Shown piece by piece: positions 12,117-26,705 of a stretch of 64,000 nt of DNA. The translations under genes were made by a program, and so were the position numbers. Under the pieces are notes generated by a model. That model ran no database searches, was not told where the DNA came from, and was given only the letters and a program-made list of their open reading frames with translations. The DNA is from Eledone cirrhosa. Taxonomy: Eukaryota. The stretch spans positions 225,742,001-225,806,000 of the forward strand of contig OZ024743.1 in NCBI GenBank assembly GCA_964016885.1, read 5' to 3'. The stretch's first letter is position 1. Every line of letters begins with the position of its first letter.

Positions 12117-13230
12117 GTAAGGCAATCAAAGATATGAAGACGGGTAAGGCGGCTGGGCCTTCGGAAATTGTTTCTGAAATGCTGAAAGCATCTGAAACGG
12201 TGGGACACACTATGGTCACCCGGATAGTAAACCAAGTCATACGGAATGGGGTCGTTCCGAAGGACTGGCGTAGCAGCATAATCATTAACTGCTACAAGGG
12301 TAAAGGAGATGCCCTAGATATGGGTAACTATAGAGGCATTAAATTAATCGACCAGGTCATGAAGGTCACAGAAAAAGTAATAGCGCAACTAATCAGAGAG
12401 CGAATTGATCTAGATGAAATGCAGTTCGGGTTTGTGTCAGGTAAAATTACCACAGACGCTCTTTTCATTGTACGACAACTACAGGAGAAGTACCTAGCTA
12501 AAAGTAAACCCCTATACTTAGCTTTTGTTGACTTGGAGAAAGCCTTTGACAGAGTCCCCCGCTCAATTATCTGGTGTGCTCTTAGAAAACTAGGTATTGA
12601 TGAATGGCTTGTGAGAGCTATACAAGCCATGTATAAAGAAACAGTCAGCAAAGTTAGAATTAACAACGAATATAGTGAAGAGTTTAGCGTGAAAGTTGGT
12701 GTTCATCAGGGCTCCGTCCTTATCCTCCTCCTATTTATTATTGACCTTCAGGCTATAACAGAGGAGTTCAAGACCGGCTGCCCATGGGAACTCCTATACG
12801 CAGATGATCTAACGCTCATAGCTGAATCAATGGCCGAACTAGAGAAGAAATTCCAAATATGGAAGCATGGCCTAGAATCAAAAGGCCTTAAAATTAACCT
12901 GTCTAAGACTAAAGTTCTAGTTTGTAGGAAGGAAAATAGGGCACCAGTCCCATCTGGGAAATGGCCATGCTTAGTGTGTAGGAAAGGAGTAGGCAGAAAC
13001 TCTATTTTATGTCCCAAATGCAAAGTATGGGTGCATAAAAGATGTAGTGGGATCACAGGTAAGCTAACTAAGTATATAGATTTTATATGTGGCCGGTGCT
13101 CTGGTGCAATAAGTAGCAGCAAGTGCCCACAGAATACTAGCCCATTCCATTGCACAGATGGTTCTATAGAAATAGTGGACACCTTCCGTTACCTGGGTGA
13201 CAAAATCAGCAGTGGTGGAGGGTGCTCTGA
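12117..13230 (+). mobile_element. RTE-clade LINE reverse transcriptase fragment with embedded PHD-like zinc finger, truncated by a Penelope-like element
   Basis: KAAGPS, NYRGIKL, QFGF, FVDLEKAFDRVP, GVHQGS, LLYADD, then C-x2-C..C-x2-C..H-x2-C..C-x2-C, then FRYLG. Confidence 0.92.
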
Positions 13231-14946
13231 ACTTTTTAGTGCAATTGTGGACTGCAAATAGGGCGTCGTCCCTGTATATTCCGCCTTGCAAGGGTTGGAT
13301 TTCGGCTCTGATGTTATGTAATAGGTAAATTCCAACTAAATCGGTGATTTGCGCAGAGTCACTTGAGCCCATCGTGATGTCAAAGTTGTCTGTTCTATCC
13401 TTTCTAGTCCAGAGTGCTCCGTTGAATTCAATGATGGTCTGCCTAGCCATAAGTATGATGTTAATCTCATTATTGGTTATGTCCGAGTTGGTGCTGGCAA
13501 GGGTTAATGCTTTGTTGAGCGGGGTTATTGAAGCGTAATAGCTGTCGATGTCAAATTGGATGAACCTCATACATTGCTTGGACCTTAGATCGGAGAACCA
13601 CCTTGGCCGGTGTTGGACCACGACTTGTAGGTGATGTCATCCCGTAGCCCAGGGATTATCCTATCAAGGATGTTCTTACTGATACAACCCAGGTCGGATG
13701 TGTTTGGGCTTATAAGTCTAATAGATGGGTTCTCTATAAAGTTTGGCTTATGATCCTTGATAGAGAACCTTGGGGTTGTTGGTACATAAGGGTGGGTAAA
13801 TCTATCCAGATGCAAGACCTTAACCAAACCCTGGGCTTTTCGGTTAAGTACGTTTACACTGGAGGGTATAGTTTTTTTATAGTTTTAAGAAGGAAAGAGT
13901 TGTAAGTTTCAGGAGTCATGGTGTATAGATTTTTAGTTTTGTCAGACATAACATGTAAGAGGTGGCTATCTTTAATTTTTGTTATAGTTGTTACTAATTT
14001 AGTGAGGAAATTATTCTTGTGTCTATAATGCTTTTTGAATTTAATGCCCCTGACGAAGTTGAATAGATCTTTCTCAAAAGGGTCCAGCAGGATGTTGTGT
14101 GGGGGGTTCTTGCAGGTGGTAAATCCATATCTATTTACTGTACTTCCGGCGTCAGCAGCACTCGCATGGTCAAAGTGGAAGGCTTTCCATCTTATTCTTC
14201 GGATGAAAGAGTTGACACTCTGTATTAGGAGTTTGAGGTATGTCTTCCTGTCCGGGATAGGTACGGACTTAAGTGAGATTCTGAGTTCTCGCTTAATTAA
14301 CATGGTGACTTCAAACAGTAAATAGCTCAACTACGGGAGCTCAAGTATACACAGTTCAAAAGTAACCAATCTTAAAGAGAGAGATGGAGATAGGAGAGGA
14401 GATAGGAGAGGAGAGATTGGTGAATTAGTTAGAAGCCAAAGCGTAAAGGCATGTGCTCAATGTGCAATATGCAGTAGAAAGCAGCTAGGTGGTTGGGTTC
14501 ATGCAGAAGTTAGGCGCGCAGAGCTGATATATATATATATATATATATCTATATATATATATATATATATATATATATATATATATATATATATACATAT
14601 ATATATATACATATATATATATACATATATATATATATATATATATATATATATATATATATATATATTCATTAGTTAAGCAAAACAAGACCACAAATTT
14701 CACAAGGAAGACATTATTAAAAGATTGTCAACATATTTAGTTTGATGCAAAGAATGTAGAGAATAATAATAATGCCCGTTTACAATTGTTTCGCTACTCC
14801 GTATAATATTTCTGGATCAGATGACTATGTATCATAATTGATCTGGTTCAGTTGAAAATAATTAACATATTTAAAAAAACAGAGTGGCTCATCGGAACTC
14901 AAAGGAATATAAATTAAAATAATGTTACATAATATAATGTTCCATA
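13230..14946 (-). mobile_element. Penelope-like element (Naiad-type), inverted 5' half with pLTR; frameshifted
   Basis: SDKTKNLY, KDHKPNF..P.IRLI.P, FIQFDIDSYYASI, TMGS.DSAQITDLVG, YRDD; pLTR ~14664-14946 is split from the 5' UTR by a (TA)n run. Confidence 0.9.
14778..14898 (-). ncRNA. Type I hammerhead-like motif in pLTR (CCGAUGA core, long stem II)
   Basis: Reverse complement of the 15008-15128 motif. Confidence 0.65.
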
Positions 14947-15007
14947 TATTAGTTTTTACTATGGAACATTATATTATGTAACATTATTTTAATTTATATT
15001 CCTTTGA

Positions 15008-15128
15008 GTTCCGATGAGCCACTCTGTTTTTTTAAATATGTTAATTATTTTCAACTGAACCAGATCAATTATGATACATAGTCATCTGATCCAGAAATAT
15101 TATACAGAGTAGCGAAACAGTTGTAAAC
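15008..15128 (+). ncRNA. Type I hammerhead-like motif in pLTR (CCGAUGA core, long stem II)
   Basis: GUU CCGAUGA GCCACUCUG..CAGAGUAGC GAAA CAGUUG UA AAC; predicted cleavage after 15125. Confidence 0.65.
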
Positions 15129-25230: not shown

Positions 25231-25574
25231 TATGTGTGTGTTAGCGTGTGTGCATATGTGCGTATGTATGAGTGTGTGTATGGTATGTGTGTGTTTGCGT
25301 ATGTGTCTGTATGCGTGTGTGTCTGTCTGTGCGTGTGTCTGTGTGTATCTGTGTAAGTGTTTGTGTGTGTGTGTGTGTACACAAATTCATAAGTTTCCTA
25401 AAATATGTCTGTATGCTTAATTTTTCTTAAAAATTATAAACTGGTTCCTTCTGTCAGAGATAATAATCTGATTTGAGAATAATGCATCTCAAAATATGAA
25501 CATGGGTGTATATATATATATGTATGTGTGCGTGTGTCTGTGTTTGTGTTTGTGTGTGTGTTAAATATATATCA

Positions 25575-25800
25575 ACTAGCAGAAAACCACCCACCGGGTG
25601 GTTTTCTGCTAGTCTATATATCTAAAACAGAGAATGTCTGTCTGTCTGTCAGCTCACTAAAACTCGAGAACCACCCAACCGATTGTTTTCAAACTTTACA
25701 AATGTAATACTTATGGTCATGTGGGTGTTTTGAGCAAATTTCAAATTTTCAATGCCCTAGGGACCAAATTAGGCGATTTAGCGATCTTTCTCTATAATTC
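25575..25800 (+). mobile_element. Non-autonomous Helitron-like fragment
   Basis: CTAG-ending palindrome directly followed by TCTATATATCTAAAA and a (GTCT)n run, typical of invertebrate Helitron 5' ends. Confidence 0.55.
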
Positions 25801-25976
25801 TTAGTCTTTCTTTTTAGATAGATACATAGATATAACGTTGCGCCCTTATAATATCTGTCTGTATGTCTGGCTGCCTGCATTACGCCATTAAGACGCGATC
25901 AGTGTGTGTGTGTGTGTATATATGTATATATAGTGTGTGTATATATGTATATATAGTGTGTGTATATATATATATT

Positions 25977-26705
25977 CTTATGCCAGGGAACGTCTTCACG
26001 AACCAAAGTATCGTCTTCCTGTTTTCCTTCGGTTGCAACGTTTTTCGAAATATTTACTTCTGCGTTCACAAATTTTTTAGTTTCAGAAGATCCCGTTAAG
26101 GGTGAAAGCAGCGATTCTTTGCTTAAACTTTAATATGTTATTTTAATATAGATATTCATGTACAGATATTTTTGCATACACAAAAACAAAATATAAACAA
26201 ACAAGGCCGGCGATTACATAATCACATGCATCACTGACAGATATTTTTGCATACACAAAAACATTTAGAAATATTTACTTCTGCGTTCACAGATTAATTT
26301 TTTTAGTTTCAGAAGATCCCGTTAAGGGTGAAAGCAGCGATTCTTTGCTTAAATATTAATCTGTTATTTTAATATATATATATATATATATATATATATA
26401 TATATATATATATATATATATATATATATATATATATATATATATATATATATATATATATATATATATATATATATATATATATAAATATATATATATA
26501 TATATATATATATATATATATATATATATATATATATATATATATATATATATATATATATATATATATATATTCGTGTACAGATATTTTTGCATACACA
26601 AAATAAAAACAAACGTATTTATTTCATGAGGCTCGATAAGGATAAATATATATCAAATATATAAGAACCCTAGAGCAAATCCCGAGAACGTCAAGCCATT
26701 CTGGT
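25977..26705 (+). mobile_element. Tandem (~226-bp period) copies of the CAGAAGA hammerhead-like repeat plus an inverted segment
   Basis: GAAATATTTACTTCTGCGTTCACA..GTTTCAGAAG twice; ACAGATATTTTTGCATACACAAAA three times; a (TA)~100 tract inside. Confidence 0.7.

Follow-up and report, generated by a model that had tools for sequence, protein, structure and literature searches.

Hydra-clade Penelope-like element ends, a 628-bp hammerhead array and a candidate junction hairpin at TA tracts of Eledone cirrhosa

How do hammerhead-bearing units come to lie side by side in TA tracts, and which enzymes place them there? The question is raised by a 64-kb stretch of Eledone cirrhosa DNA (assembly GCA_964016885.1, contig OZ024743.1, positions 225,742,001 to 225,806,000), called here the window and numbered from its first letter, which carries Penelope-like elements (PLEs), a 628-bp tandem array and several small insertions with hammerhead motifs. 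An earlier note on this DNA had proposed that autonomous PLEs of the Naiad and Neptune types lend their reverse transcriptase (RT) and GIY-YIG endonuclease to a guild of non-coding ribozyme RNAs. The reading that we favour, with a probability of about 0.6, is a Hydra-driven system: truncated, often inverted ends of Hydra-clade PLEs, one derivative without an open reading frame (ORF), namely the 628-bp unit, and one Neptune-like copy, in TA tracts. The identity of the elements under this reading is highly probable, and the placement of these units into TA tracts by PLE machinery is well supported. The analysis drew on the window, on 17 outside metagenome loci obtained by Hydra alignment (12 once six near-identical ones were merged), on contigs from four public sequencing runs, X1 to X4, and on the literature. 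The runs represent two samples of one study, possibly including the source of the window itself; contig depth does not equal copy number and was never used as such. For self-comparison of the window we adopted a masked self-BLAST, since microsatellites swamped plain repeat finding.

We assign the element at 13.2-18.15 kb to the Hydra clade because of its C-terminal endonuclease and its RWK, DKT and CxCX5C motifs, and not to the Naiads, where it had been placed. Alignments to its relatives run from RT to the GIY-YIG endonuclease, which comes last, and its frames show RWK, DKT (translation of 13866-14285), CxCX5C and CxxC-E-N-CxH, without CCHH. Together with a C-terminal endonuclease, RWK, DKT, CxCX5C and the lack of CCHH are the marks of the Hydra clade, while Naiads have an N-terminal endonuclease, DKA, CX2-5CxxC and CCHH, and are devoid of canonical hammerheads (PMC8557442). 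On all these protein features the window element sides with Hydra, and it is inserted in (TA)n. Hammerheads were detected by descriptor in the pseudo-long terminal repeats (pLTRs) of both coding elements of the window. Those of the 13-18 kb element, three copies, have three helices, a U4C change and a domain II of 94-96 nt, and their folds sit 4.8-7.7 kcal/mol above the minimum-energy structure. U4C and a U.U pair at 10.1-11.1 are known natural variants (PMC3088659, in whose accessible text the term "U4A" does not occur), G10.1-C11.1 being the usual closure (PMC4209133; PMC3088659).

The locus is composite. Arm A (13236..14526, minus strand) holds the 5' untranslated region (UTR), with junction hairpins at 14455-14524 and 14325-14340, as well as the ORF's 5' half (RWK, DKT, RT up to YRDD); it has two frameshifts and is cut at 13236 against an RTE-like long interspersed element (LINE), which has a PHD finger. 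An inverted pair of pLTR ends, 99.3% alike, follows at 14669..15258, with CCGATGA hammerheads at 14778-14898 (minus) and 15008-15128 (plus), both with a 96-nt domain II. The right arm continues into a plus-strand tail (15259..15446) with a junction hairpin at 15268-15337, and ends in (TA)n 5 nt ahead of where the second hairpin would stand. The 140 nt from the TA tract to the following copy (15526-15666) have no assigned identity. Copy B (15667..18150, plus strand) is 5'-truncated and encodes RT, thumb, a CxCX5C linker and, C-terminally, a GIY-YIG (stop at 17527), with frameshifts and one in-frame stop; its hammerhead is at 17906-18026 (domain II 94 nt) and its 3' end lies on (AT)41. The two arms jointly span about 3.3 kb of element (Hydra elements are typically, not strictly, below 3 kb), have one frameshift in common, and a Ser replaces an otherwise conserved endonuclease Arg. 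Identity is unequal between parts (pLTR A/B5 99.3%, ORF A/B 99.5%, UTR 94.4%, pLTR B5/B3 94.1%), and therefore the locus is probably the product of two or more insertions.

Both coding elements of the window are broken by frameshifts, stops or truncation; therefore they cannot be the helpers, and the description of them as autonomous does not hold. Word-based protein searches returned nothing for the Hydra endonuclease or the Neptune-like endonuclease, and 2 matches at 50-54% for a piece of the Hydra RT; the lack of a near-identical intact relative in such searches is weak evidence. No relative was found among viral contigs.

The hammerheads of the window are real. A strict descriptor of types I, II and III gave 9 matches at a score of at least 20; the 8 local shuffles yielded 0-1 matches apiece and the reversed window none. 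A looser type I descriptor gave 11 matches, which belong to four families, versus a mean of 0.35 over 40 shuffles. Of the 261 Rfam matches in the window, the 150 listed include no hammerhead, and Rfam gave nothing on the 628-bp array; its miRNA matches in the window were microsatellites. Complete type I families number five (the 628-bp array, the 13-18 kb pLTRs, the CAGAAGA family, the 41.5-kb element and a minimal hammerhead at 23831) and not about seven mutually dissimilar ones, as had been counted. At 40.2 and 41.2 kb only 3' halves are present, and by masked self-BLAST the 8.8 and 26.6 kb motifs have sequence in common with CAGAAGA copies. The "permuted hammerhead" is not sustained either, with no type II or III match in the interval concerned and neither core box present in 26574-26707. 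Type II/III readings of the 26.6, 40.2 and 41.2 kb motifs were rejected, as they do not fold.

The 628-bp array was confirmed, at 18710..20528 (minus strand), with three intact-core hammerheads. It is made of 2.9 non-coding tandem units and has TA tracts at both ends. The type I hammerheads (18963-19043, 19591-19671 and 20219-20299, minus strand, domain II 40 nt) are, in all three copies, the predicted minimum-energy structure, and junction hairpins lie at 19305-19328 and 19933-19956. Units 1 and 2 differ at 2 positions and units 1 and 3 at none (99.7% alike). The longest frame is 84 aa and the GC content 33.8%; neither a tRNA nor a PLE protein match was found in the unit, and none of 20 shuffles folds as well as the monomer (z -3.3). 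Under the criterion of bioRxiv 10.64898/2026.07.22.740005, a non-LTR retrozyme has a complete type I hammerhead in at least 2 consecutive tandem units, is non-coding and has a GC content below 50%. Here 3 of 3 units have the hammerhead, so that, judged by its sequence, the array is a non-LTR retrozyme in the published sense. It is the only unit of the window shown to be closed and ORF-less.

The 628 family is also present in the public runs. In the three runs of one sample (X1-X3), 971-1111 contigs per run were placed on one monomer, and 20 in the second sample (X4). All 30 bins of the monomer were covered, end-to-start joints were present, and in X1-X3 1% of the contigs ran on into unlike sequence. 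A change at position 10.1 that gives U.U accounted for about 60% of the contig depth there. No change in the catalytic core appeared among the variants listed (all but 4 rows); only about one was expected, and therefore we do not count the unchanged core as selection.

That the hammerhead families are bordered by (TA)n was borne out, above background. The 3' ends of hammerhead elements lay within 10 nt of (TA)≥5 in 7 of 10 cases, the ends of single-copy elements being partly defined by the TA tract itself, versus 2.3% of window positions and 4% of positions in 8-27 kb. Control ends were near such tracts in 3 of 60 cases (1/28 for short interspersed elements, SINEs, and 2/32 for other repeats; Fisher p 1e-5). 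The SINE copies number about 14, some tandem or inverted, and are rarely TA-bounded (1668-1996, 20848-21053, 24205-24403, 28293-28488, 50870-51927). The adjacency is real, and it is already a published Hydra trait: all but one of the listed Hydra families, one octopus family among them, insert in (TA)n (PMC8557442). At 14527-14668 and 26372-26573, long (AT)n occupies the precise point of a unit junction for which the sister copy has only a few bases; besides targeting TA tracts, the elements may seed them.

A second feature of these insertion ends is a hairpin, first found in the outside loci and afterwards checked in the window families. In 5 of the 7 hammerhead-bearing outside families, GCTC-loop-TTGAGC(A/G)CT lies 3' of the hammerhead, often twice, about 60 nt apart, the first copy usually just behind a TA-like stretch. 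More generally, the motif is an inverted repeat, RCTC...T(T/A)GAGY, with a compensatory pair: the outer pair is G-C in some families and A-T in the 628, 39.7-kb and 40.0-kb families. For window families having one copy that ends in TA and another that runs on, we measured the distance of the motif from the last shared base. It started -1 to 5 nt past that base in 5 of the 6 testable families, against a background of 130 in 22826 positions (0.6%). The families concerned are the Hydra element (at both ends), the 628 unit, the 11.6/40.9 kb, the 39.7 kb and the 40.0 kb insertions; the outside loci L003 and L007 behave likewise. The strict form at the 628 junction arises in 8 of 20000 shuffles. In L005, L007 and L010, the tandem junctions of coding Hydra elements carry (AT)4. 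The inserted end, about 25-260 nt beyond the hammerhead cut, is not set by that cut. The junction hairpin is apparently undescribed: in a literature search extending to sources other than Repbase and subscription papers, no description of the motif, or of PLE hammerheads with a long domain II, was found, and the word "hairpin" has no occurrence in the accessible text of PMC8557442 and PMC3846280.

These data fit a scheme in which the 628-bp unit would be a Hydra derivative that unites the 5' start with a 3' region bearing a hammerhead and moves as a retrozyme, the Hydra RT and endonuclease coming from elsewhere in the genome. Transcripts would read through the unit junction, the hammerhead would cut tandem transcripts, and circles may form. 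The Hydra endonuclease would nick (TA)n, a short TA-like stretch at the RNA unit junction would pair with the nicked end, and the hairpin just 3' of this stretch would position the RT and set its start. Copying for more than one round would give arrays, such as the 2.9-unit one, and early stops would leave stumps. The hairpin may thus be a signal recognised by the jumping enzyme. That it has a priming role for the Hydra RT is a tentative proposal, to which we give somewhat less than even odds. Telomerase RNA has a template-boundary element, and by analogy the RCTC...TTGAGY hairpin could be a clade-wide RNA signal fixing the start of the Hydra RT on the adjacent short TA template, an extension that we consider rather doubtful. 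If true, it would account for the need of PLEs for read-through into the following unit, for the origin of the tail on one side and for the choice of (TA)n; RNA circles retaining the hairpin, such as the 628-nt retrozyme, could ride along.

Several observations weigh against this scheme. The hairpin is absent at the TA-bounded end of the CAGAAGA family in the window test, and from L012 and L015. Counted without regard to position, the relaxed motif occurs 26 times in the window and on average 19 times in shuffles, which is no enrichment, and the loop limit was widened and the A-T form allowed only after cases were seen. The exact 9-mer matched just one Hydra consensus in the PMC8557442 supplement; in what is visible of the Hydra-1_Obim 5' end, GCTC stands without the exact partner. 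As for the 628 unit, masked self-BLAST revealed no alignable sequence in common with the adjoining Hydra element, 26% of the 20 contigs in X4 ran on into unlike sequence, and 216 loose ends of contigs lie outside the displayed set. The main rival to a priming role is the motif as a promoter, TATA plus inverted repeat marking the 5' start of a DNA element whose units are copied start to start, maybe from an antisense template. This is unlikely in our view, even though full units do have the motif at their 5' start (L003, arm A), a TATATATA box occurs in rotifer pLTRs, with antisense templating proposed as well (PMC3846280), unpaired bases beside the stem are conserved as well, and compensation fits a DNA inverted repeat equally. 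Loop lengths of 8 to 78 nt are easier to reconcile with an RNA stem than with a spaced site for a protein on DNA, and copy B1 ends 5 nt ahead of the second hairpin, the same distance as ends keep ahead of the first.

One could also deny that a mobile non-coding unit exists: every small family, the 628 included, would represent a coding PLE's pLTR, and the array would be a satellite grown in place by unequal crossing-over. The 628-nt length is on the pLTR scale (the local Hydra 3' UTR has 623 nt), the hammerhead and its 3' side have several times the contig depth of the part upstream, and local amplification is named as one route (bioRxiv 10.64898/2026.07.22.740005). We nevertheless hold it improbable: the array ends exactly at the TA/hairpin junction, is cut at an arbitrary point opposite and is flanked by TA on either side, identity is 99.7% between its units but below 99% for most placed contigs, and the displayed loose ends of contigs (e.g. 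at 19048-9) mostly resemble, by eye, diverged forms of the unit, one being pure TA. The guild of unrelated non-coding RNAs hijacking Naiad or Neptune enzymes fares worse, and we judge it very improbable; families do not align mutually, the Neptune-like copy also ends at TA and cephalopod Naiads prefer (TA)n (PMC8557442), yet the window has no Naiad, and the small families carry Hydra-style hammerheads and the Hydra junction motif. Since they are dissimilar in sequence yet have these hallmarks, they look like Hydra derivatives more than like an unrelated guild. What stands of the proposal of the earlier note is the PLE route of ribozyme RNAs into TA tracts, with Hydra as helper in place of Naiad. 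Finally, motifs arising by chance, or fold-backs of the assembly, in DNA that is AT-rich and dense in microsatellites, where short motifs are common and some inverted arms are 99% alike, are hardly credible in view of the shuffle controls, the indels and substitutions between arms, the end-to-start joints in contigs from public runs, and the fact that inverted ends with a tail are a published PLE layout (PMC8557442, PMC3846280).

Under the Hydra-driven system that we prefer, the small families other than the 628 look like 5'-truncated or inverted PLE ends. The claim that these ribozyme families are non-coding units is borne out for the 628 only; for the others, the picture looks like the case that the earlier note itself had named as refuting it. 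The CAGAAGA family is real, with a hammerhead-like motif at 8790, 24040, 26079 and 26306 and an inverted fragment at 23978-24005. The latter (minus strand), (TA)17 and a plus-strand copy cut at helix I (24040-24112) make up 23978..24112. Two motifs 227 nt apart, 26079 and 26306, lie in 25977..26371 (plus strand), the second ending on (AT)101. A run-on piece at 26574..26707 (plus strand), which is probably the "permuted hammerhead", lacks an intact core; its start resembles the sequence behind the 26079 copy, and it shares sequence with the 8.9-kb and 26.16-kb flanks of CAGAAGA copies. At 8789..8950 a plus-strand copy is joined to an inverted piece also found at 26630-26680. All 5 copies have U4A, with U.U at 10.1-11.1, and predicted folds are 2.2-7.5 kcal/mol above the minimum. 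With U4A and a single 227-nt pair, the family falls outside the retrozymes, which have a canonical core in tandem units. The same design occurs behind coding Hydra genes: in L012, CTGAAGA TCCC..GGGT GAAA lies about 240 nt behind the endonuclease, L008 has the same helix II, and the U.U closure occurs in 14 of the 25 Hydra families listed in File S2 of PMC8557442. Because of this shared domain II (TCCC..GGGT, U.U closure), the CAGAAGA family is probably a Hydra end.

The remaining small insertions lie mostly near 40 kb. The single-copy 41.5-kb element (41529..41840, plus strand) starts at a TA tract and has a probable hammerhead at 41534-41662 (plus strand) with a canonical core and a 98-nt domain II; its score was reached once in 5 of 40 shuffles. 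Three families have inverted ends. The 40.0-kb insertion (40007..40392) has only the 3' half of a hammerhead, and its tail starts with the hairpin (40307-40392). The 39.7-kb insertion (39683..39864) lies between TA tracts, has no hammerhead, and its tail also starts with the hairpin (39793-39816). The 11.6-kb insertion (11556..12019, hairpin at 11599-11634, minus strand) has a second copy, 72% alike, at 40820..41320 (hairpin at 40864-40899, minus strand) with a half hammerhead at about 41190-41275 (minus strand); a candidate hammerhead for this family was discarded, as it does not fold.

The PLE at 21480..23949 (plus strand) is 5'-truncated and frameshifted, and comprises the RT thumb, a broken Cys linker and a GIY-YIG domain with a CCHH pattern. 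It is Neptune-like on sequence grounds, with Nematis as the alternative. The C-terminal GIY-YIG (Pfam E 0.007, under the curated cut-off) with CCHH agrees with the earlier label "Neptune-type", while the RT core, which would distinguish Neptune from Nematis, is missing. Of the expected CX2-5CxxC linker, the first two Cys are present and a stop stands where the third belongs. A look-up of the thumb in the Atlas matched eukaryote clusters without names. The minimal hammerhead of this copy (23831-23858, plus strand) has a helix I of only 2 bp, and gave 1 match in 200 shuffles. An inverted 12-mer is common to 21410 and 23965, flanking the copy.

Other observations concern the surroundings. A remnant of another Hydra-type endonuclease lies at 9839-9967 (minus strand; tblastn E 5e-6), with a TA tract ~110 nt further on. 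A short stub at 26820-26890 resembles the end of the 40.0-kb family and is followed by an A-T junction motif (26864). TAACCAAT ends three unrelated-looking pieces (21420, 24000, 41835), two of them directly on TA tracts. At 18272-18531, an inverted repeat with near-identical arms of ~95 nt between (ATC)n/(GAT)n is a possible PLE stump with another microsatellite as its target, and at 28556-30893 repeated ends among (TATG)n surround a 557-aa RT-like frame (28791-30464, minus strand), another microsatellite-associated retroelement. Several L1/Tx1-like LINE copies with APE and RT domains, and the RTE-like LINE that is cut at the Hydra arm, lie in 51926-64000 and 12092-13235. Further short palindromes occur at 1217-1417, 8729-8790 and 25557-25629; from 25557 onward we take the sequence to resemble a Helitron-like end.

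Two features were met in none of the papers searched: the junction inverted repeat, and hammerheads with a 94-98-nt domain II in two families. The PLE-retrozyme partnership itself is largely anticipated in print: PLEs as movers of retrozymes were suggested in PMC7229834 and argued in bioRxiv 10.64898/2026.07.22.740005, although in the literature examined neither clade nor cis signal was assigned in invertebrates. Craig et al. (PMC8557442) called PLE priming, the formation of tandem and inverted ends and the choice of microsatellites open. Short, with a compensatory pair, and keeping a fixed distance to the end of the insertion in families that are dissimilar and animals that are distant, the motif lends itself to a direct mutational test. 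A 94-98-nt domain II escapes short-loop descriptors, and therefore hammerhead counts in such genomes may be underestimates. Two cephalopod Naiads marked "HHR_half_core", with core halves far apart (PMC8557442 File S1), may hide hammerheads of this kind, and the words hammerhead and retrozyme are absent from the accessible text of an octopus repeat annotation (PMC13282606).

Compared with known systems, the 13-18 kb element is closest to the Hydra clade of Craig et al. 2021 (PMC8557442), which includes Hydra-1_Obim: the protein features are the same, as are the (TA)n targets, the hammerhead near the 3' end and the inverted pLTR with tail. It represents another family than Hydra-1_Obim, with a different hammerhead (the proteins were compared by eye only). 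Its U4C, its 94-96-nt domain II and its length of about 3.3 kb set it apart; domain II is at most 26 nt in the 25 listed Hydra families and 10-18 nt in all 7 hammerhead-bearing outside families, and the junction hairpin is not mentioned in the accessible text of that paper. Like the non-LTR retrozymes of animals (Cervera and de la Pena 2020, PMC7229834; Li, Clavereau and Pollet 2026, bioRxiv 10.64898/2026.07.22.740005), for which descent from PLEs and movement by their enzymes have been proposed, the 628 array has tandem, non-coding, low-GC units with one type I hammerhead each. Its 628 nt exceed the 150-450 bp of the former study and lie inside the 51-972 bp of the latter, which showed the connection for Xenopus only; in the window a cis motif and the choice of target connect the unit to Hydra, from DNA alone. 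The Neptune-like copy resembles the minimal hammerheads of metazoan PLEs (Cervera and de la Pena 2014, PMC4209133), most of which occur singly and are part of truncated PLEs: it has the additional base behind A9, G10.1-C11.1 and an ACGU palindrome. The other window families differ in having a real helix III, a long domain II or a core altered at position 4. The pLTRs of Adineta vaga (Arkhipova et al. 2013, PMC3846280), whose sequences suffice for movement in trans, likewise have inverted ends of which one arm bears a tail; unlike them, the window tails measure about 70-190 nt, begin with a shared motif and target (TA)n.

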